Source: Thainema sp. (GTDB lineage: Bacteria; Cyanobacteriota; Cyanobacteriia; Phormidesmidales; Phormidesmidaceae). Taken from it: a stretch of 47,999 nt of DNA. The notes beneath the pieces are model-generated. The model searched no databases. It saw only the letters and a program-made list of their open reading frames with translations, and was not told the DNA's origin. The translations under genes were made by a program, and so were the position numbers. Position 1 is the first letter of the stretch. Each line of letters begins with the position of its first letter. Where the stretch lies: NCBI GenBank assembly GCA_052168235.1, contig JBQLZK010000059.1:1-47999 (forward strand), read 5' to 3'. Of this stretch, positions 4,454-45,293 are shown one piece after another.

Positions 4454-4525
4454 TAAATTCAAAAGAAAGTCCCATTAGATTCAAAAAATAATCCAATGCG
4501 CTATCTAATTGATGGCTGATACAGT
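4454..4525 (+). promoter_or_regulatory. Putative cynA promoter with tandem 22-bp direct repeat (candidate AraC-type activator site) and -10 TACAGT
   Basis: TAAATTCAAAAGAAAGTCCCAT (4454-4475) and TAGATTCAAAAAATAATCCAAT (4476-4497) match at 17/22; TACAGT at 4520-4525. Confidence 0.5.
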
Positions 4526-4600
4526 ACAGAGCAAGATGCCTGCCAGCTCAATCGGCTTTGGTTTTGAGTCCGCATAGTGGAGTTTAGGTTAGACAAAATT

Positions 4601-6238
4601 ATGGTTTTTACAGCGATACAAACGAATCAAAAGTGGGGAAATCTGAATTGCGATCGCGGAGAACTGTCTGATTTACAGCTGGCATGTGTCATCTGCGGTG
4701 GGCAGCACTCGACGATGGATCACTGGGAATTTATCCAGACCATGCCGTCTGACCCCGTGGATATGGTGGATGACCTGGTGAAAATGGGTCTCTACAAGCA
4801 AAATCAGCTCCGAGCGGCAGACAGCATCAACGCCCATGAACTGCGGAAGGCGCTGTTCCTCAAAACCGTCGGTCGCGGCAGTCCCAAGCGCGAAAAGCTA
4901 ATTCTAGATCTGTGTAAGCAGGCTGGTGGTCTAGAAAACGCCTTTGCGGCAGCGTTTGGGCCACAGGCAGGTCTGTTTTTTGCCGATTCAATTCGCAATA
5001 GCGGTGCAACTCGGCGCGAATTCTTGCGTAATATGGCTGTCGGTGCGGCACTTGTTACCCTAGCGAGCTGCGGTGGCGGCGGGGGTGAGCCAACCGTTGA
5101 GGATACGGGCGAACCTGTCTCTACAGAAGGACTGGAAAAGACGGACTTGCAGGTTGGCTTCATCCCCATCACCTGCGCCACGCCCATCATCATGTCGGAG
5201 CCGCTGGGCTTTTACCAAAAGTATGGCCTCAACGCCAAAGTGGTGAAGATGCCAAGCTGGGGAGCCGTTCGCGATTCTGCGATCGCAGGTGAGCTAGACG
5301 CCTATCACATGCTGGCTCCCATGCCGATTGCGATGACGCTGGGCCTGGGTTCGGCAGCTTTCGGTGTCAAGCTGGCCAGCATTGAAAACATCAACGGTCA
5401 GGCAATCACTGTCGCGGAGCGCCACAAAGGTAATGTCAATGGCCCCGCCGACTTCAAGGGATTCGTGATTGGCGTTCCTTTCCCCTACTCCATGCACAAT
5501 CTGCTGCTGCGCTACTACCTGGCGACGGGTGGAATCGATCCGGATGTAGACGTACAGATTCGCCCCGTGCCGCCGCCGGACAGCATCGCTCAGATGGTAG
5601 CGGGTGACATTGACGCTTACCTGATGCCCGATCCGTTTAACCAGCGGGCGGTTTATGAAGGCGTCGGCTTTATCCACCTAATTACCAAAGAGCTGTGGCC
5701 CGGTCATCCCTGCTGCGCCTTTGCCGCCAGCGACCAGTGGATCAGCGAAAACCCCAACACCTTCCGGGCGTTGAACAAGTCGATTATCGAAGCCGCTGGC
5801 TACGCTCGCGATCCGCAGAATCGGCCTGAAATCGCCGCCGCCATCTCCGAGCGGGCGTTCTTAAATCAGCCTGTAGAAGTGGTTGAAGCCGTCCTGACGG
5901 GCAATTTTGAAGACGGCAACGGCAACACCTTAAACGTACCCGACCGGATCGACTTTGACCCGTATCCCTGGCAGAGCTTCGCCAACTGGATCTCCTCGCA
6001 GCTGGTGCGCTGGGATCTACAAGGTGACGGAGCAGCGGCAAAAGCCATGACCGATCAAGGCTATGACGAGGTGGGTAAGGAAATCTTCCTGACTGATTTG
6101 GCTCGTGAGCTAGCGGAGGAGCTAGGCCAAGAGCCTCCGTCGGAAATCTATCGCAGCGAAGAGTTGATGTTTGACACCTTTGATCCTGCTAATCCAGACG
6201 CCTATGTACAGCAGCAGATTGATGAGTACGGTGTGTAA
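4601..6238 (+). CDS. cynA: Cyanate ABC transporter substrate-binding protein (NrtA/CmpA family) with N-terminal extension
   Basis: GFIPITCATPII, WPGHPCC and RIDFDPYPWQS motifs; internal Tat/lipobox TRREFLRN...LASC; heads an operon containing cynS. Confidence 0.88.
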   Translation: MVFTAIQTNQKWGNLNCDRGELSDLQLACVICGGQHSTMDHWEFIQTMPSDPVDMVDDLVKMGLYKQNQLRAADSINAHELRKALFLKTVGRGSPKREKLILDLCKQAGGLENAFAAAFGPQAGLFFADSIRNSGATRREFLRNMAVGAALVTLASCGGGGGEPTVEDTGEPVSTEGLEKTDLQVGFIPITCATPIIMSEPLGFYQKYGLNAKVVKMPSWGAVRDSAIAGELDAYHMLAPMPIAMTLGLGSAAFGVKLASIENINGQAITVAERHKGNVNGPADFKGFVIGVPFPYSMHNLLLRYYLATGGIDPDVDVQIRPVPPPDSIAQMVAGDIDAYLMPDPFNQRAVYEGVGFIHLITKELWPGHPCCAFAASDQWISENPNTFRALNKSIIEAAGYARDPQNRPEIAAAISERAFLNQPVEVVEAVLTGNFEDGNGNTLNVPDRIDFDPYPWQSFANWISSQLVRWDLQGDGAAAKAMTDQGYDEVGKEIFLTDLARELAEELGQEPPSEIYRSEELMFDTFDPANPDAYVQQQIDEYGV

Positions 6239-16574: not shown

Positions 16575-18110
16575 TTACGATTGCAGCGCTGCCAAATCTA
16601 ATTCATTCAACGGCTGAAAGAAATCCATCAGTCGTTCTTTAATCGCATCTACGCCACCTGCCACATTCGACTCAATATTCAGCGGCATCACCGGATCGTG
16701 CAGCGACAGACGCAGCAAAAACCAGCCATTTTCCGCCGCCGCCTGACAGGACACGCGCACGCCCTCGTAATTATTCGGCACAACCTGCCAGCCGTCCTGC
16801 GCGGCAGCAAAGTCTTTCAGCCGCTCAATCACCGCGTTGCCATACGCCTTGAAGTCATCCGCCTTGATTTTGAGCCGGAATTCTTCACTCTCCACTGGTT
16901 CCTGCAAATTGGCAATCAAATCCGTCAGCGTTTTACCCTCCAGCTTCGACTTGGCCAGCTCAACCAGCAGCTTACTGACCAGATACGCGCCATCATCCAG
17001 AAAATAATTTTCCCGCATCGCCCCGTGACCGGAGGTTTCAATCGCCAGCCAGGATTCTTGTCCGGCTTCATTTAAGCGAATCGCCTCGTTGATCACGTTC
17101 TTGTAGCCCCGCTTGAAACGGTGATGCACGCCGCCCAGATCCTCTTCGATAAACTGCGTCAAGCCGTCCGAGGTGATAGAGTCCGTCACCACTGTACTGC
17201 CAGGATGCTCTTGAAGTGCGATCGCAGATATCAGGGCAATCAGCCGATTTCGGTTCAGCTCCCGACCTTGGTGATCCACCGCTGCCCCCCGATCCACATC
17301 GGTATCAAAAATAATACCGAAGTCAGCCTGATTGTCGATCACCGCCTGACAGATGGAGGCCATCGCCTCTTTATTTTCGGGATTCGGCACGTGGTTGGGA
17401 AACGAGCCATCCGGTTCCAGAAACTGGCTGCCCGTCGTATCCGCTCCCAGAGGTGCGAGGACTTTGCTGGCATAGAAACCGCCCGCACCATTGCCTGCAT
17501 CAACAATTACCTTCAGCCCTTGCAGCGGTTGGTCAAAATGGTCGGGATGGTTCACCGCTTTGCGAATCATCTGCACCAGTTGGTCAGCGTAGACGGAAAT
17601 AAAGTCACGCGCCTCAATTTCACCGGTAGTTTCGGCTGCTGCAAACTCGCCTTGCTCCGCCAGCGCCAAAATATCGCTAATGTTTTGCTTGTCTAAACCA
17701 CCGTTCTTGGTGAAAAACTTCAGCCCGTTGCGGTTAAACGGGAGGTGACTCGCGGTCATCATAATGCCGCCGTCGCAGTCATACTCCGGCGTGACGGTGC
17801 TCATGAACATGGCAGGTGTAGATGCGATCGCACAGTCATACACCCGACAACCACAGGCCGCAATTTCCTCCATCACCGCTTGCATCAGCTCTGGCCCAGA
17901 GAGGCGACTGTCTCGACCAACGGCGATGGTGAGTTGCGCAGGTGATTTGCCCAGCGTTTGCGATAGCCAGCTAACAAACGCTTTGCCCAGGGTGCGAACC
18001 ACGTCCGGCGTCAGGTTTACGGCTTCATCCGGTACACCCTCCAAGGCGACACCACGAATATCCGATCCGTTCTGGAGCTGTTTCCACGCAAATGATGCTG
18101 CTGTCGGCAT
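16575..18110 (-). CDS. Phosphomannomutase/phosphoglucomutase
   Basis: QNGSDIRG, TASHLP phosphoserine loop, FDTDVDR metal loop, ETSGH. Confidence 0.95.
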   Translation of the reverse strand: MPTAASFAWKQLQNGSDIRGVALEGVPDEAVNLTPDVVRTLGKAFVSWLSQTLGKSPAQLTIAVGRDSRLSGPELMQAVMEEIAACGCRVYDCAIASTPAMFMSTVTPEYDCDGGIMMTASHLPFNRNGLKFFTKNGGLDKQNISDILALAEQGEFAAAETTGEIEARDFISVYADQLVQMIRKAVNHPDHFDQPLQGLKVIVDAGNGAGGFYASKVLAPLGADTTGSQFLEPDGSFPNHVPNPENKEAMASICQAVIDNQADFGIIFDTDVDRGAAVDHQGRELNRNRLIALISAIALQEHPGSTVVTDSITSDGLTQFIEEDLGGVHHRFKRGYKNVINEAIRLNEAGQESWLAIETSGHGAMRENYFLDDGAYLVSKLLVELAKSKLEGKTLTDLIANLQEPVESEEFRLKIKADDFKAYGNAVIERLKDFAAAQDGWQVVPNNYEGVRVSCQAAAENGWFLLRLSLHDPVMPLNIESNVAGGVDAIKERLMDFFQPLNELDLAALQS

Positions 18111-18240
18111 GGTTTTCCCGCTGATAGACCTAACATTACATTGCTCAGGCTAACGCGAGTTTTTTCCGTAATCGGCAGGCTTTAGGCTTAATTCAGAGTT
18201 AGGCGCAAGAAGTGCGATCGCAGCATGGTAGCAAATACTT

Positions 18241-18407
18241 GATAACTTCGGTATCGGGGATGTTATCAGCATTTTTGACGGATAACATCCCCTATCTCTA
18301 GGATTAACCATCACATTTGACGGATAACACCCTGAAAAAGTAGGTGTTATCCCACAGATCTGACGTATAACCACAGAATGTAGGGATGTTATCTATCAGA
18401 TCTGACG
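18241..18407. repeat. Four imperfect tandem 40-43-bp units with GATAAC..GTTATC inverted boxes, each ending in TGACG
   Basis: Units start at 18241, 18281, 18323 and 18366. Perfect IRs are GGGGATGTTATC/GATAACATCCCC (18256-18292) and GGATAACACC/GGTGTTATCC (18322-18352). Confidence 0.75.
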
Positions 18408-18458
18408 TTGAATATATAGTTAAATCGTATCGGATTAAAAATCTATTCAGGGTTAATA

Positions 18459-18547
18459 CAGCGCTCTTAAATAGCTGATGAACTAAATTGATTATGAACA
18501 GGCCGCCCCGCTGGGGCGGCCTGTTCATAATCAATTTAAGATGGCTG
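18459..18547. mobile_element. 89-bp MITE flanked by TA, with a perfect 26-bp internal palindrome
   Basis: TA|CAGCGCTCTTAAAT...ATTTAAGATGGCTG|TA (12/14 TIR); perfect hairpin at 18484-18538. Confidence 0.7.
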
Positions 18548-18603
18548 TAATAGAAGTTTACTGTTAGGGCTTGGGAACCCTATGTGAAGTTAGTTCCGCT
18601 ACG

Positions 18604-18691
18604 ACTTAACACTGCGTTGGAACAGACAACGCCATCGGTTAACCGCACGGCGATAACCATCGGCGCTGCGGTTCAACTCCGTCCGTTATAC
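18604..18691 (+). mobile_element. Integron attC-like recombination site
   Basis: R'' ACTTAAC, 5-nt spacer, L'' GTTGGAAC ... L' GTTCAAC (pairs with L'' leaving one extrahelical base), 7-nt spacer, R' GTTATAC; 88 bp. Confidence 0.7.
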
Positions 18692-18751
18692 AGCCTGCTC
18701 TGTGCGTAGGGATACATTCTTTCGTATACTCATCCTCGACGTGCAGTACTT

Positions 18752-19294
18752 GTGAGGGTGGTTCACGTGCCAACGCTTCAAGTCCAAGAAGCTTACTCTT
18801 TCTACAGAACATTTATTCTTGATTACAGCCGCAATAAAGCCCAAATTTATGAGCAGTACGGCTTTTCCTTGCAAGGTAGCGTAGGTTCAAAAGATTGGGA
18901 AGTATTCGCGGCAATTTTAGTGAACGATAGAGCAAGAAGAGGCGATGGGGCAGATTTGGTGAACTACGAAGTAAAATCTGCCACGATTGGAAGTAGCTTT
19001 GAGTACCAATACCACAGAAATTGTGGACTAAATAAACTAACCGACGACAGGAATGTAGATCACATTTTCGTCGCTAGAAGTGAAACCTATATGAATGTTG
19101 AAGTTTGGTTAGTTGAGCGTACTAAAATGGTTCCTATATTTGATAGGTGGCTGCCCGAACTCATTCAAAACTATGAAGCCGCAGACAGGCAAAGGTTTCG
19201 ACGTTCAGTGACTTACGGTTTTGTTAGGAATCAAGGCGTTCGACTGCTAGAAATTACTGGTGGAGAACTACGCTATTTTCTTGAAACGACTTAG
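18752..19294 (+). CDS. Putative type II restriction endonuclease (PD-(D/E)xK)
   Basis: E..GADLVNYEVKS catalytic-like motif; convergent overlap with a C5 methyltransferase; AT-rich; start uncertain. Confidence 0.7.
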   Translation: MRVVHVPTLQVQEAYSFYRTFILDYSRNKAQIYEQYGFSLQGSVGSKDWEVFAAILVNDRARRGDGADLVNYEVKSATIGSSFEYQYHRNCGLNKLTDDRNVDHIFVARSETYMNVEVWLVERTKMVPIFDRWLPELIQNYEAADRQRFRRSVTYGFVRNQGVRLLEITGGELRYFLETT

Positions 19295-20447
19295 CTAAAG
19301 GATTCAAGATATTTTCAGCAATCCAGACAATAACAGGTACACAAACAGCATCGCCAAATCCTGTCAAAGCTTGATTGGTTTGTAGTGGAAGTGGATAATT
19401 GTCTGGAACACCTTGCAGCCTCGCATATTCACGAGGTGTCATGAGGCGCATTTTTATAGTTCCTTGTCCAACTCGAACAAGCATTTGCCGACTGCTACCA
19501 CCTCTAGCAGTTCTGAGACAACCAGCAAGACCATCTTTTCTCAGTTCTGCCCTTTGCTTACCTTCGCGAACCCGCCTATACATAGGGCAATATGAATATG
19601 TTGATAGCTCCTGTAGTCCTTGTAAGTATTCGAGATTAATGGATGACATCATATTTAGATGACGCTTTACCTCATTGTCAGACCACCAGCGATCATCGTC
19701 ATCTGAAATGTTTTCTATGATGAAGCTCAAGTCAGCTTTTATCTTGTCTGGCAGTGATGGAACATCCAAAAAGTTCCAGCATAGATCAAGATTGGTCATA
19801 ACTGCCTTTTCGAGCGCCTGTGTTTTAAGTGAGGAAGAACGCTTAGAGAAAACGAATATATCCTGATTAGCGTTAGATGCTTGCATTCCGACAACAAATA
19901 CTCTTGGTCTGCTTTGAGGTACAAAATGAGCCGCATCAACAGCAAAAACATCACAAACATACCCTAGCCGATTCAATTCTTGAATTGTGATTCTGAAGTC
20001 TTGCCCGCTATTTGACGTTAGCCATCCGGCTACATTTTCCAGCATTACAATCTTAGGCTTATTTACTTGACCATCAAGGATTTGGGTAAATCCCCAAAAA
20101 GCACTAGAATGCTGTCCATCAATACCTTCTAAATTACCTGCCAAAGATAAATCAATACAAGGAAATGATGCTGTTGCAAGTATCGTGTCAGGAATATCGG
20201 CAGGACAAATGGAAAAAATATCTTGAACCTTATAATGCTTAGTTGCGTCTTGAAAATGGGCTGAGTACATTTCAAACTTGCTATGCGCCCAGTCGTTAGC
20301 AAAGACAACGTTCCAACCTACTTGCTCTAGTCCTAATCTGACTAAACCAATTCCTGCAAAGTACTCCGCACATGTTAGGTGACCATAAAGACTTACAGGC
20401 TCTCTTACGCCCACTAAAGCCTTGTTTTTCATTACAGAAAGAGGCAT
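19254..20447 (-). CDS. DNA (cytosine-5) methyltransferase
   Basis: Motif I FAGIG, IV FPC, VI ENV, VIII QSRPRVF, IX-X REYARLQG..GDAV. Confidence 0.96.
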   Translation of the reverse strand: MPLSVMKNKALVGVREPVSLYGHLTCAEYFAGIGLVRLGLEQVGWNVVFANDWAHSKFEMYSAHFQDATKHYKVQDIFSICPADIPDTILATASFPCIDLSLAGNLEGIDGQHSSAFWGFTQILDGQVNKPKIVMLENVAGWLTSNSGQDFRITIQELNRLGYVCDVFAVDAAHFVPQSRPRVFVVGMQASNANQDIFVFSKRSSSLKTQALEKAVMTNLDLCWNFLDVPSLPDKIKADLSFIIENISDDDDRWWSDNEVKRHLNMMSSINLEYLQGLQELSTYSYCPMYRRVREGKQRAELRKDGLAGCLRTARGGSSRQMLVRVGQGTIKMRLMTPREYARLQGVPDNYPLPLQTNQALTGFGDAVCVPVIVWIAENILNPLAKSFQENSVVLHQ

Positions 20448-20479
20448 AGTGCTTGCGTTACCAACTTTACAAGAGTAAA

Positions 20480-20507
20480 TTCATAGCCATTGCTATGAAA
20501 GCATAGC
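20480..20507. promoter_or_regulatory. Putative controller-protein operator between the divergent M and C genes
   Basis: Overlapping IRs TTCATAGC-CATT-GCTATGAA and GCTATG-AAAG-CATAGC. Confidence 0.6.
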
Positions 20508-20537
20508 GTCATCCTTACTGCTGAGTCAACTAAATTT

Positions 20538-20753
20538 ATGAGGCGATTTGGGGAAAAGCTATACCAATTAAGGATGCGGCAGGGCTTGACATTGACAGAA
20601 CTAGGTGACTTGCTAAGTGTTCACAATACATTTGTATCGCAAATGGAGAAGGGGAGGAAGGTTCCTAACGCTGAAATGATTCTTAGAGTGGCAGATGCTT
20701 TTGGCGTGACTACTGATCAACTAATGCGTGATGAGTTGGACTTGCCGGAATAA
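20538..20753 (+). CDS. XRE-family HTH protein, probable R-M controller (C protein)
   Basis: FGEKLYQLR..GLTLTELG..VSQMEKGRKVP..VADAFGVTTDQL; 71 aa; divergent from the methyltransferase. Confidence 0.88.
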   Translation: MRRFGEKLYQLRMRQGLTLTELGDLLSVHNTFVSQMEKGRKVPNAEMILRVADAFGVTTDQLMRDELDLPE

Positions 20754-21003
20754 CATTGCTGAAATGCTGTAGCTGGCTTCATGATTCAATCAAACCCGTT
20801 TGAATAACCATAAAATTTCAAAAAGCGGAGGTGCGGCGCTTTGTTTGGCTTCTTTAGCCTGATTTGCTCTGAAAATGCAATTTGATGTTTTGAGGTGGTG
20901 TGTGGTTGCAGTTTTAGCAACCATAACCATTTAGCAACCGTTGCTGTTTACTGTAGCAATAGGTTCAAGTTGTATTCTCTGACAATCGGTTGTTAAAGGA
21001 TGT

Positions 21004-21924
21004 GTGGTGATGCAGGTTCAACGACTCATATATGGGGCAATTGGGTTATCGGTTGCGATCGCAAGCAGTAGTCTTATCCCTTTCACGCCCTTGTCCTCAT
21101 CTTCCGCCAGCGGACGCCCAGCGATCGCGGCCTCCCAGCCAACCGTCATGTTTGAGCGCATAGGATTACCTCGTTCCGTTGCAAATACTGGAAAACGGAG
21201 CGTTCAGCGAGACGATCAAAACCGCATTGATAACATTCGCACCGTTGCATTTCCCATGCAAGATGTGTCCGAAGAGATGCGATCGCACATTGACATGGAT
21301 AGCCTCTCTAATGCGCTGACCAATGCGGTTATACAGGATGCTCAGGAACGGTTCAACAGCCCTGAACTGCCGCCTGAGATAGCTTCAGATACACCAGCCG
21401 ATATTAGTGTCCAGGTTGAATCGATTGAACCTGTCACCTGGAACGAATGTAGCAGTGGTTCTGGCCCCTCCCGCCCGATGCGTGGCATTTGTCCTGATAT
21501 TGATGTATTTGGGTGGCGAGTAGTTGTTGCGGGAGGAGAGCGTTCCGAGCCACTCCGCCTGGTTTACTACATCCCGCAGGGAGCTGAAGTTGGTTCCTGG
21601 ACACCCCAGCCTGACGGGTTGCAAAGTCTATCAGAAGCCATACAACGGAGAATTCTTGCCCAAGCCGCAGAGGATGCTGGAATGCCCATCTCCAGTTTGC
21701 GCCTGTTCTGGGCCGAGGCTCGCTTCTTTGATCACCGTTTGAATACTTGTGAAGGTGCCTCCAGCTGTGGCATTGGTATTCGTCCAGGGTGGACGGTGCA
21801 AATCCTGGGCGATCAGATAATCTCCGGTACACCGATACAGCAACCCCTGTGGGTCTACCACACCAATATTACGGGCACTGATCTTCGTCTAGTTAGCCAG
21901 GGCCAGTGGATGCCACTTCCATGA
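21004..21924 (+). CDS. Hypothetical exported protein with two related Cys-containing domains
   Basis: Signal-like N-terminus; repeated units W..C...C....GWRVVV and C....C.....GWTVQI...WVYHTN. Confidence 0.7.
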   Translation: MVMQVQRLIYGAIGLSVAIASSSLIPFTPLSSSSASGRPAIAASQPTVMFERIGLPRSVANTGKRSVQRDDQNRIDNIRTVAFPMQDVSEEMRSHIDMDSLSNALTNAVIQDAQERFNSPELPPEIASDTPADISVQVESIEPVTWNECSSGSGPSRPMRGICPDIDVFGWRVVVAGGERSEPLRLVYYIPQGAEVGSWTPQPDGLQSLSEAIQRRILAQAAEDAGMPISSLRLFWAEARFFDHRLNTCEGASSCGIGIRPGWTVQILGDQIISGTPIQQPLWVYHTNITGTDLRLVSQGQWMPLP

Positions 21925-21951
21925 TAGTGCCAACCATAGGAGGTGGAAGCA

Positions 21952-22086
21952 ATGCTAGGGATTACGCTGCAACGAATCCAAGTTTATCAAGAGGCTAAAG
22001 AGGAAAGGCGAGAAAACGAAGCGCGATCGCAGATTTTCCAGAGTGTGAAAAGCGCGATCGCACTTTACGTACTGGAGAATATATAG
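21952..22086 (+). pseudogene. C-terminal remnant / small ORF of an Rpn family (DUF2887-like) protein
   Basis: EVEA-MLGITLQRIQVYQEAKEERRENEARS, with a GGAGG RBS upstream of ATG 21952; 44-aa ORF below the ORF-track cutoff. Confidence 0.6.
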
Positions 22087-22165
22087 ATTTTCGTAAATCT
22101 GGCAGAGCCCACAAGCATTAGCCCCGATAATGCTGAAATATCGATTCCAGAGTCAGGCTTTATCC

Positions 22166-23434
22166 ATGACGGCGACCCAAGCATCTGTAGGAACTTCAAA
22201 TCAGCAATCCCGCACCCATCAAATCGTGATCGTTGGCGGCGGCTCAGCCGGAATTACAGTGGCGGCTCAGTTGCTCAAGCAGCAGCGATCGCTGGATGTT
22301 TGCATCATCGAGCCGTCTGATCAGCACTACTACCAGCCCGGATGGACGCTGGTCGGTGGCGGCTGTATGACGTTTGAGGAAACCGTACGGCTGGAACAGG
22401 CGCAAATTCCAGAAGGAGCCGCTTGGCTACAGGATGCCGTCGTGCAGTTTGATCCAGACAACAACAGCTTGCTGACGCAGAATGGTACGCGGGTCAACTA
22501 CGGCTACTTGGTGGTTTGTCCAGGCATTCAGCTCGATTGGGATCGGGTTGCAGGACTCAAAGATGCCCTGGGGAAAGGCGGCGTGTGCAGCAACTACGCG
22601 ATTGAAGGCGCAACCTACACCTGGGAGACGATTCAGAACTTTAAGGGCGGCAATGCGCTGTTTACCTATCCGGCAACCCCAATTAAGTGCGCTGGCGCAC
22701 CGCAAAAGATTATGTACTTGGCCGACGATACTTTTCGGCGTAACGGGGTGCGGCAGAATACGCAGATTAGCTACTGCACCGCCACGGGCAAGATTTTTGG
22801 GGTGGCGGCGTTTGTGCCGGCTCTGATGGAAGTCGTGCAGCGTAAGGACATTCAGCTCAAGACGAGTCACAACCTGACAGCGATTCGTCCCGATGACAAA
22901 ATTGCCGTATTTGAGGTGACGGGCGAAGGCGGGACAGAGCAAGTTGAATTGTCCTACGACATGATTCACGTGACGCCACCGATGAGTGCGCCGGATTTCA
23001 TTAAGCACAGTCCGCTGGCGAATGAGCAGGGCTGGGTGGATGTAGACAAGTACACCACGCAGCATGTGCGCTATCCAAATGTATTTAGCCTGGGCGATGC
23101 GTCGTCACTACCCACGTCTAAGACCGCAGCGGCGATTCGGCGCGAAGCTCCAGTGGTTGTGCAAAATCTGCTGGCTCACGCGGCCCAAACGGAATTAACC
23201 GGACGATACAACGGCTATAGCTGCTGTCCGCTGATCACGGGCTATGGCAAAACGATCCTGGCCGAGTTTGATTACGAGGGCAATCCCTATCCCAGTTTTC
23301 CACTCGATCCAACCCAAGAGCGATCCAGCATGTGGATGCTGAAGCGCTATGTGCTGCCTTGGGTCTATTGGAATCGCATGCTCACCGGGGGAGAGCACGA
23401 AGGAAATTTTATCCGTCGGTTATTTGCGTCGTAA
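22166..23434 (+). CDS. sqr: Sulfide:quinone oxidoreductase (type II-like)
   Basis: IVIVGGGSAG FAD motif, HYYQPGWTLVGGG, IKCAGAPQK, KTAAA, YNGYSCCPL..AEFDY. Confidence 0.88.
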   Translation: MTATQASVGTSNQQSRTHQIVIVGGGSAGITVAAQLLKQQRSLDVCIIEPSDQHYYQPGWTLVGGGCMTFEETVRLEQAQIPEGAAWLQDAVVQFDPDNNSLLTQNGTRVNYGYLVVCPGIQLDWDRVAGLKDALGKGGVCSNYAIEGATYTWETIQNFKGGNALFTYPATPIKCAGAPQKIMYLADDTFRRNGVRQNTQISYCTATGKIFGVAAFVPALMEVVQRKDIQLKTSHNLTAIRPDDKIAVFEVTGEGGTEQVELSYDMIHVTPPMSAPDFIKHSPLANEQGWVDVDKYTTQHVRYPNVFSLGDASSLPTSKTAAAIRREAPVVVQNLLAHAAQTELTGRYNGYSCCPLITGYGKTILAEFDYEGNPYPSFPLDPTQERSSMWMLKRYVLPWVYWNRMLTGGEHEGNFIRRLFAS

Positions 23435-23469
23435 GTCCATATCAATAGCGCTAATTCCGAGAACCGCTA

Positions 23470-24201
23470 TTACGCCAGCGCCTGATAGTTCTTCACGCGC
23501 TTTTCGGTTTCAACGCCCAAAATTTTGGCTAACCACGGCGGTGGTGAAGTTGCGATCGCGTGCTGCAAGTTAGTCAGGATATTTCTTGCGTCGCCCCCTT
23601 CCTCGACTTTCATCGGGTAGATATTGGCCTGCACCACCTTGGCTGCCGCTGGGCCACCAATGGAAACAACGTAGAGCACCGGACAATCGCGAATTAAATC
23701 GAGGCGAAACTGATTTTTGCTGTCGCTCAAATCAGCTTCCAGGGCTGAACGAACATCAATCAACCGAATTTCATCAACAGACAGTTGATAAATCAAAAAG
23801 CGATGGCACGAGCCAAAGTGTCCGTCCAGTTGCTCCGCCGTATTGGAGGCCACTGCCACCCGAATCGAGTTAGGCATGTCGCCATCTTGATAGGGAACAA
23901 TCGGTAGCGTTTGCTCGCACGGTTCAATGTCGCCCCAGAGAATGCGTACGGCGTCTTTGAAGGCGGCAATATCTTGGTTATCTGCGTCTTCGCCTTCCCA
24001 TTCGCCATCGACTTCGTAAATATTGCCAAAGGAGCGCTTGAGCTGAGTGACGGTCAGCTTGCTCAGCGACTCTTCGGTGATCTCGTCATTCAGAGTTGAC
24101 TGTAGCGCTTCAATTAAATCTCGGACTGAGATATCCGGCAGCGCTCTAGCCGCTAAACCAATTCTCAATGCGACTTCATCGGTGATGGGTTGACTAACCA
24201 T
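23470..24201 (-). CDS. Dinitrogenase FeMo-cofactor biosynthesis protein, NafY/NifY family
   Basis: VALRIGLAARALP N-domain plus NifX-like domain (IRVAVASN..LDGHFGSC..FLIYQ..SIGGPAAAKVV..PPWLAK); GGAG RBS before ATG 24201. Confidence 0.88.
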   Translation of the reverse strand: MVSQPITDEVALRIGLAARALPDISVRDLIEALQSTLNDEITEESLSKLTVTQLKRSFGNIYEVDGEWEGEDADNQDIAAFKDAVRILWGDIEPCEQTLPIVPYQDGDMPNSIRVAVASNTAEQLDGHFGSCHRFLIYQLSVDEIRLIDVRSALEADLSDSKNQFRLDLIRDCPVLYVVSIGGPAAAKVVQANIYPMKVEEGGDARNILTNLQHAIATSPPPWLAKILGVETEKRVKNYQALA

Positions 24202-24751: not shown

Positions 24752-24839
24752 GACTTTATTTCCAATAAAGTTTTTGGGGTTGGAAATTGTTTTGTAGCGC
24801 GGCGGAGCCGCGCTACAAAACAATTTCCGATAAAGTCTA
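24750..24839. mobile_element. 90-bp MITE family A, copy 1 (TAGACTTTAT...ATAAAGTCTA)
   Basis: TIR plus internal GGAAATTGTTTTGTAG hairpin; further copies at 32216 and 45204. Confidence 0.85.
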
Positions 24840-45203: not shown

Positions 45204-45293
45204 TAGACTTTACTGGAAATAAAGTTTTTGGGGTTGGAAATTGTTTTGTAGCGCGGCAGAGCCGCGCTACAAAACAATTTCCGATAAAGTCTA
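45204..45293. mobile_element. 90-bp MITE family A, copy 3
   Basis: TAGACTTTAC...ATAAAGTCTA; small left loop inverted relative to copies 1 and 2. Confidence 0.85.

Follow-up and report, generated by a model that had tools for sequence, protein, structure and literature searches.

Genes of the restriction-modification module

The stretch of DNA analyzed here (the window, 47,999 nucleotides) is an entire contig, JBQLZK010000059.1 (C59), from the genome of Thainema sp., a filamentous cyanobacterium of the family Phormidesmidaceae (G000; 7.54 Mb in 205 contigs, 50% GC). To the right of a phosphomannomutase-family gene it carries a compact type II restriction-modification (R-M) system together with a candidate controller gene, an island of approximately 41% GC between flanks of 52% to 57%. 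A sequence-only reading of the window had recognized the three genes as those of a PD-(D/E)xK nuclease (R), a C5 cytosine methyltransferase (M), and an XRE-family protein (C), and had proposed that this R-M-C system of ~2.1 kb came in as a single gene cassette of an integron and that its own attC site was afterwards truncated. The gene assignments were borne out by a structural model and by profile matches, and the proposed history is supported by the boundaries of the module and by attC-flanked copies of it elsewhere. Genomes, contigs, and loci are designated below by G, C, and L numbers; the comparison set was a sample of 101 genomes from the taxonomic family to which G000 belongs, and G001 is a genome of the same genus.

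The first gene (18752 to 19294, plus strand) encodes a protein of 180 amino acids from a GTG start codon at 18752, and many of its homologues begin 5 codons later. The protein matches no family in Pfam or PADLOC. Its AlphaFold2 (AF2) model (pLDDT 91.9) has PvuII chains as its top Foldseek matches in the PDB, with an E-value of 1.1e-6, a probability of 1.0, TM scores of 0.5 to 0.6, and sequence identity of 12% to 15%. In 22 sequences, with identities as low as 35%, the residues D48-W-E50, D68, and E73-V-K75 never change. A search with the protein found 217 relatives at E-values up to 0.001; the best 120 listed are 68% to 90% identical to it, and all relatives with a source name are labelled hypothetical. 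Judging from the predicted fold and the conserved residues, this family of endonucleases of ~175 to 180 amino acids can now be annotated as PvuII-like restriction enzymes.

The methyltransferase gene (19254 to 20447, minus strand) runs toward the nuclease gene, and the 3′ ends of the two genes share 41 bp. The product matches PF00145 over profile positions 2 to 323 of 324 (E 7e-51), the PADLOC model MTase_II (PDLC03243, E 1.6e-116), and M.HhaI (E 5.8e-26). A scan of species-representative genomes yielded 64 loci with homologues of the nuclease, 16 of which carry all three genes complete. The nuclease gene lies beside a C5 methyltransferase gene in 62 of the 64, in several phyla, which is the pairing of a type II R-M system as far as it can be read from genes.

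The third gene (20538 to 20753, plus strand) encodes an XRE-family helix-turn-helix (HTH) protein of 71 amino acids, a candidate controller with matches to HTH_31, HTH_3, and the PADLOC model Control_protein (PDLC03665, E 2.6e-8). It occurs in 17 of the 64 loci, all of them cyanobacterial. The Thainema protein is 4 amino acids shorter than its relatives, from which its TAA stop codon (20751 to 20753) differs. Between the divergent M and C genes lies a palindrome, TTCATAGC-n4-GCTATGAA (20480 to 20499), a candidate operator (C-box). This 8-4-8 palindrome is fully or almost fully conserved across 13 loci whose flanks vary, and on the strand of the M gene a promoter-like TTGACT-18-TATGCT (20529 to 20500) lies close upstream of it. 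The XRE protein probably binds the palindrome and tunes both the M gene and its own gene. It could not be cotranscribed with R, because its gene is divergent from M and the convergent M gene stands between C and R.

The module as a discrete unit

In the window the R-M-C cassette, which lacks an attC site of its own, spans 18686 to 20771 on the plus strand. These boundaries come from blastn comparisons with loci that share the unit at 86% to 90% DNA identity (L065 to L070, L082, and L087): homology begins at 18680 to 18688 in L065, L066, L067, L068, L070, L082, and L087 and at 18715 in L069, with starts at 18684 to 18686 in several genomes, and it ends at 20769 to 20771 wherever the contig permits. 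The left boundary coincides with the G|TT of the R′ box of an attC site, which is where an integron cassette is expected to start. All copies open with a TTATACAG-like sequence directly after unrelated upstream DNA, and in the window this opening follows the G of the R′ box.

attC sites were searched for with two covariance models built from a family of ~86-nt sites described below, R1 from 11 sites in G000 and R2 from 49 sites in G000 and another 29 genomes from the taxonomic family, with the site in the window left out of both. An attC site recognized by R2 adjoins the right end of the module in 13 of the 16 complete copies (32.9 to 60.6 bits), and one abuts on its left in 4 of the 16 (L067, L070, L086, and L087), so that attC flanks, for which the sequence-only reading had proposed to check, occur in most copies on the right and in a minority on the left. 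In L086 the unit sits inside an array of six attC sites. The upstream attC sequences differ among the window, L067, L070, L086, and L087, which places the same unit in different arrays, as expected of a mobile cassette. At the right junction the relatives read ...GCTGTA, followed by TAAC AAGCC CAATGCACCCGAC...GGGTGATTGG GAAC GTTA, which is an attC site with the R″ box GTATAAC. This box is the exact complement of the GTTATAC with which the cassette opens, and it is the box that the sequence-only reading had predicted for the cassette's own site.

Other forms of the system were also seen among the homologues. Cyanobacterial copies with R and M only are numerous (L072, L075, L076, L078, L080, L081, L083, L090 to L096, L101, L104, and L128); they have no XRE gene, and their homology to the window mostly stops at ~20366 to 20382, with a few extending up to 20532. 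No site of the attC family was found at their ends, the nearest being one in L090 at a distance of ~3.5 kb. The form bounded by attC sites and equipped with a regulator is one variant among several. Distant nuclease relatives (L098 and L102 to L127, 35% to 53% identity, from Chloroflexota, Acidobacteriota, Rhodothermales, Myxococcota, and other groups) are always beside a related C5 methyltransferase gene, without an XRE gene and mostly in tandem with M before R; M then R on one strand is the order in the records from the first three groups at a nuclease identity of 35% to 45%. The occurrence of such pairs across phyla indicates that the pair is much older and wider than its cyanobacterial cassette form.

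The right end of the cassette

The last conserved bases of the module in the window are GTA (20769 to 20771, plus strand), the start of what in relatives is the R″ box GTATAAC. After them the window diverges, so that the cassette's own attC is lost from the fourth base of R″ onward. The following 114 nt (20772 to 20885) are junction DNA that stands in place of the attC and is present as a single copy in G000. Local alignments of these bases to the attC sites of nine relatives were no better than alignments to 500 shuffles each (z −0.9 to 0.4), and the best model score anywhere in 20650 to 21050 is 7.6 bits, on the other strand. Because no attC signal follows the GTA, the cassette's own site appears to be absent by deletion or replacement.

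The sequence-only reading had placed a remnant of this attC 21 bases further left, at the GAATAAC (20748 to 20754) and ATTGC around the XRE stop codon. Both strings are present, but they are not an attC remnant: relatives read GAAGAAC CATTGC TGA here, still inside the XRE gene, whose reading frame runs on for four more codons in them, and neither model scores anything at GAATAAC.

A different account of the right end is that the attC is still there at ~20769 to 20859, decayed by point mutations, with a hairpin at 20808 to 20859 that ends in TTTAGCC as its remnant. R2 does give a weak alignment to the hairpin (4.5 bits), MAFFT sets the window's TGCGGCG...TTTAGCC under the L′-R′ half of the relatives' sites, and the distance from the break to the next mobile unit is near one attC length. 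However, 4.5 bits corresponds to an E-value of 0.67 even in a search of only 401 bases, and the shuffled alignments above show no attC similarity in the same DNA. We therefore regard a decayed but resident attC as unlikely and favor its deletion or replacement.

The attC site upstream of the module

The site that precedes the module (18604 to 18691, plus strand) is a diverged member of the attC family. Every string that the sequence-only reading had assigned to it is present: R″ ACTTAAC (18604 to 18610), the spacer ACTGC, L″ GTTGGAAC, L′ GTTCAAC, the spacer TCCGTCC, and R′ GTTATAC (18685 to 18691). R″ ends in AAC and R′ begins with GTT, and both line up with the R boxes in the family model. 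When GTTGGAAC pairs with GTTCAAC, a single G is left bulged out, as in the L stem of the family consensus, and the spacers are 5 and 7 nt long.

The sequence-only reading had proposed a covariance-model search as a check, and with the two family models the site is recovered over its full length. R1 finds it end to end as the top match in the window (24.0 bits, E 0.0015), and R2 gives it a significant 28.7 bits (E 4.5e-5), which by simple scaling would correspond to an E-value of ~0.01 genome-wide. Five genomes in the taxonomic family that lack strong matches (25 Mb) served as an empirical null and contained one R1 match of at least 24 bits. Searches based on primary sequence performed differently: BLAST of the 105-bp site against G000 returned only the self-match, and an nhmmer profile of six sequences found new family members and missed the window site at E-values up to 10. 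Structure-aware models were needed because sequence alone does not place this site. An Rfam scan of 17500 to 21500 gave microRNA-like noise on a palindromic repeat and no attC family.

The parentage of the site can be read from its two parts: the R″-L″-L′-G portion is that of the resident site, and the TTATAC that completes the R′ box is that of the incoming R-M-C cassette, an assignment made by comparing sequences.

A probable attI region and a first cassette

Upstream of the attC site, 18224 to 18422 (plus strand) resembles the attI region of an integron without intI. It contains repeated TGACGGATAAC-type motifs with direct and inverted repeats and ends in a shared block, ...GAATATATAGTTA. 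In 5 of the 6 intI loci examined (L051, L052, L054, L055, and L056) it matches DNA ~160 to 180 nt upstream of, and divergent from, a full-length intI, and in complete integrons the alignment reaches the integrase start codon. Further attI-like copies occur in G001 and on contig C51 of G000. Nine aligned copies share the block ending ...GAATATATAGTT, and after the next base, past a shared GTTA, they diverge completely. In L010, L015, L016, L019, and L056 the attI copies have attC sites of the same orientation on their downstream side. From this position and this pattern of divergence, we infer that 18224 to 18422 is an attI site with its crossover at G|TT, 18419|18420. To the left of ~18224 the window has no recognizable integrase coding sequence.

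Between the attI GTT and the G of the attC R′ box lies a short first cassette (18420 to 18685, plus strand) that ends in the attC site and has no convincing open reading frame (ORF). The ORFs in this region, 18150 to 18374 and 18304 to 18534 (minus strand), have no Pfam match.

The attC family and its integrases

The attC family came to light in a geometric scan of G000 for sites whose R boxes show no more than one deviation, with similar spacers and a perfect L stem of 7 bp that contains a single bulge, among which were ~86-nt, mutually similar sites that fold as single hairpins. Extended by nhmmer, the family in G000 comprises 11 distinct sites and one identical duplicate on contigs C1, C4, C20, C41, C43, C51, C58, C80, and C133, with an array of three on C80 and of two on C1. 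The consensus combines TAAC/GTTA R boxes with spacers that stay unpaired and an L stem from which one base bulges out, and 9 of the 16 pairs of the structure show compensatory changes. R1 matches 90 of the 101 genomes, and intI genes above the curated cut-off of TIGR02249, which served as the threshold for integron integrases, occur in 41 of the 101, along with many further fragments. Among the rows listed (for example, G005 C1, G009 C842, G084 C145, G092 C38, and G107 C14), intI and attC are 1 to 5 kb apart and divergent as in integrons, and the sites form arrays with a spacing of 0.8 to 3 kb. On these comparative grounds the ~86-nt repeat family is an integron attC family. That it is instead some other structured repeat lying near tyrosine recombinase genes by chance, as the lack of an Rfam match and a definition by sequence comparison would allow, is hardly credible, given the defining attC layout of the consensus, its covariation, and the orientation and spacing of the arrays beside genes above the TIGR02249 cut-off.

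The only trace of an integrase in G000 is an N-terminal fragment on C41, an ORF of 107 amino acids covering model positions 1 to 62 (69.6 bits). This fragment (C41:1957-2280, equivalent to L001 1393-1716, minus strand) lies ~300 nt from an attC site at C41:2596-2681. An identical attC is found near a contig end at C80:24056-24141, and the two further sites on C80 are at 21561 and 22407; C41 and C80 may hold parts of a single locus that the assembly has divided, or there may be two copies. Beside the C41/C80 integrase-fragment locus no attI element of the window type was found. A tblastn search with full-length IntI of the 5-kb flanks of all 64 nuclease loci found a single short fragment, in L073. 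There, in a Nostoc record, an integrase-like fragment (4515 to 4604, minus strand) lies ~400 nt upstream of the nuclease gene, and the R-M-C cassette in L073 may be the first one beside a decayed integrase.

Distribution of the cassette

The nuclease gene is present in 13 of the 101 genomes, in 6 of 19 genera, and records labelled Nostoc, Moorena, Kastovskya, and Microcoleus contain the unit at 74% to 79% DNA identity. Searches of G001, from the same genus, with the R protein and with the DNA of 18205 to 24000 did not find the R gene. This patchy distribution points to horizontal spread and argues against vertical conservation at this locus, one of the two outcomes that the sequence-only reading had named as fatal to its proposal.

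That reading had also suggested looking for an empty site beside the phosphomannomutase gene in relatives. No clean empty site could be shown among the genomes compared; what the comparison did give is an edge of homology. G001 shares only 16608 to 18203 of the locus, including the phosphomannomutase-family gene, before its contig runs out 0.8 kb further on; in two other genera nothing but that gene itself is shared. Since the homology to G001 covers the gene and ends at 18203, the integron remnant is joined to core DNA at ~18204/18205.

A probable integron remnant and the alternatives

Taken together, the locus to the right of the phosphomannomutase-family gene is very probably a chromosomal integron remnant without intI, made up of an attI site, an ORF-less cassette with its attC, and the R-M cassette. 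The sequence-only reading had brought up clusters of attC sites lacking an integron-integrase (CALIN), a label that does not strictly fit the locus: there is only one significant attC and the attI region is still present, so that the locus is better described as an integron from which intI has been deleted than as a strict CALIN. The R-M-C cassette would have been inserted at the G|TT of the resident attC through site-specific recombination by an integron integrase, an event that accounts for the hybrid R′ box GTTATAC. The cassette's own attC would later have been removed from the fourth base of R″; the truncated sequence is observed, and a later removal is its probable cause. With neither an attC of its own nor an intI in the genome, the cassette should no longer be excisable on its own. 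In the cell, the methyltransferase would guard host DNA while the nuclease cuts unmodified incoming DNA, and the XRE protein, acting on the palindrome in the divergent M/C promoter region, would set the level of the methyltransferase and its own level.

Several observations weigh against this interpretation. The first concern the attC site. R1 and R2 are specific to the family's own attC sites and are not generic attC models, and in a genome-wide R1 search the window site ranks only 17th of 18 (E 0.23), which makes it a weak member of its family. The model alignments show two non-standard pairs in its L stem. Its geometry is not rare: the scan gave 156 matches at 117 places in 7.54 Mb, approximately one per 48 kb, and three block-shuffled genomes gave 75 to 89 matches. 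The site does not fold as a single hairpin, since the minimum free energy (MFE) structure of either strand consists of two separate hairpins, and it ranks 111th of the 117 geometric matches, with no MFE pair joining its two ends; a fold of this kind is consistent with a decayed site. The second group concerns the cassette and the integron. The cassette in the window has no attC behind it, so that in this genome a defining part of a cassette is missing. Among the 16 complete copies, 3 have no detectable right-hand attC (L074, L077, and L084) and 12 have none abutting on the left; R2 searches with filters off added nothing in L074, L077, and L084, nor to the left of L065, L068, L069, L073, L079, and L085. 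By TIGR02249 there is no intact intI in G000 and none at all on C59, in line with the sequence-only statement that the window lacks an integrase, and a complete integron is therefore not present. Lastly, the placement of the regulator differs from that in classical C-protein systems, and hence we infer its target.

Most of these points could be turned into an argument that the R-M island was inserted by a non-integron route, such as illegitimate recombination or another mobile element, and that the 88-bp site is a chance attC look-alike. The frequency of the geometry, the two-hairpin fold, and the genome-wide R1 E-value would suit a look-alike, and the lack of a second attC and of an integrase in the window would suit another route of insertion. 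A chance resemblance, however, is hard to reconcile with the full-length R2 match. Insertion by another route would also have to place the module boundary exactly at the G|TT of the R′ box of a site that has an attI region 180 nt upstream of it in the right orientation, for a module that elsewhere has strong attC sites at its flanks. The boundaries and the attC-flanked copies largely refute this explanation, which we consider highly improbable, and insertion of the module as an integron cassette is retained.

Other features around the locus

The first cassette contains a dispersed palindromic repeat of ~95 bp (18456 to 18549) that resembles a miniature inverted-repeat transposable element (MITE). 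It includes a perfect 26-nt hairpin, and there are more than 25 copies on other G000 contigs, at 75% to 96% identity, and many in G001.

The upstream region of the phosphomannomutase-family gene (18128 to 18204, plus strand) has weak attC-like ends. It reads ACCTAAC ATTAC ... TTCAGA GTTAGGC, with R boxes and spacers like those of the family and no L stem, and with scores of 13.1 bits (R1) and 12.0 bits (R2) at E-values of 0.6 to 0.9 it is the next-best attC candidate in the window. It is kept in G001, and the blastn homology between the two genomes stops right at its GTTAGG. It could be an old secondary recombination site or a coincidence.

To the right, the junction DNA is followed by a neighboring mobile unit (20886 to 21937, plus strand) with an ORF of 306 amino acids (21004 to 21924) that has no Pfam match. 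It shows 82% to 84% DNA identity to G059, G100, and G004, in three other genera, with the homology confined to 20886/20904 to 21937, and the protein occurs in only 5 of the 101 genomes. A weak attC-like site follows the unit in G059 (17.7 bits) and G100 (12.2 bits), and in G053 a strong attC (67 bits) lies ~600 nt downstream. The unit may be a further cassette whose attC is missing at this locus. Elsewhere in the window, two copies of a palindromic repeat of ~53 nt (24779 to 24831 and 45233 to 45285) have weak scores with the attC models, 8.7 to 13.2 bits, and lack attC R boxes.

Comparison with known systems

The Thainema cassette is like the type II R-M cassettes in the sedentary chromosomal integrons of Vibrio and pseudomonads in that a compact R-M system forms one attC-bounded cassette in an array. 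It differs from them in belonging to a filamentous cyanobacterium and in comprising three genes in two orientations with their own regulator and candidate operator; in this genome, moreover, the integron is without intI and the cassette without attC. Vaisvila et al. reportedly found an R-M system in a pseudomonad super-integron in 2001. That defense systems, including R-M systems, are carried in integron cassettes is already established in principle: small type II and IV restriction systems are prevalent among integron-borne defenses, according to the bioRxiv account of Darracq et al. (2024, 10.1101/2024.07.02.601686), and Ghaly et al. (2021, PMC8618304), in their treatment of cassette functions, name restriction and methylation among those commonly reported and Cyanobacteria among the integron-bearing phyla. 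A full-text literature search found no paper on cyanobacterial R-M cassettes, although such a search is not proof of absence.

Cyanobacteria are named as encoding integrons by Cury et al. (2016, PMC4889954), whose definition of CALIN is two or more attC sites without an integrase, and who note that CALIN may arise through loss of the integrase. Like CALIN, the locus described here has attC-bounded cassettes with no integrase nearby and other attC clusters in the genome, whereas unlike a typical CALIN it retains an attI region and has a single significant attC. For single sites, IntegronFinder 2 uses the term "SALIN".

The system shares with the C-controlled R-M systems of the PvuII type a nuclease whose model matches PvuII, a small HTH protein, and a conserved palindrome. 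The partner methyltransferase of PvuII makes N4-methylcytosine, whereas the enzyme here is a C5 methyltransferase, and the low identity of the nuclease to PvuII sets the two systems further apart. In classical C-R operons the controller is cotranscribed with R; here its gene points away from M, and the convergent M gene lies between it and R.

Significance for cyanobacterial integrons

With its clear boundaries, the locus exemplifies a self-regulated type II R-M system of three genes that appears to move among cyanobacteria as a single cassette, and it is a case in which an integron cassette was correctly recognized from raw sequence alone. The comparison also supplies working definitions of an attC family and an attI region that could be used to map the integrons of cyanobacteria and their defense cargo, which are little described. 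A broader proposal, which we offer tentatively and hold to be possible more than probable, is that the integrons of filamentous cyanobacteria form a distinct class, with an attI carrying TGACGGATAAC-type motifs and ending ...TATAGTTA and attC sites of ~86 nt, that moves self-regulated multi-gene defense cassettes across cyanobacterial orders, and that the addictive R-M cassette in Thainema was fixed in place when its attC and the integrase were both lost. If this is true, it would amount to a route of fixation by which integron cargo is turned into a permanent chromosomal set of defense genes.

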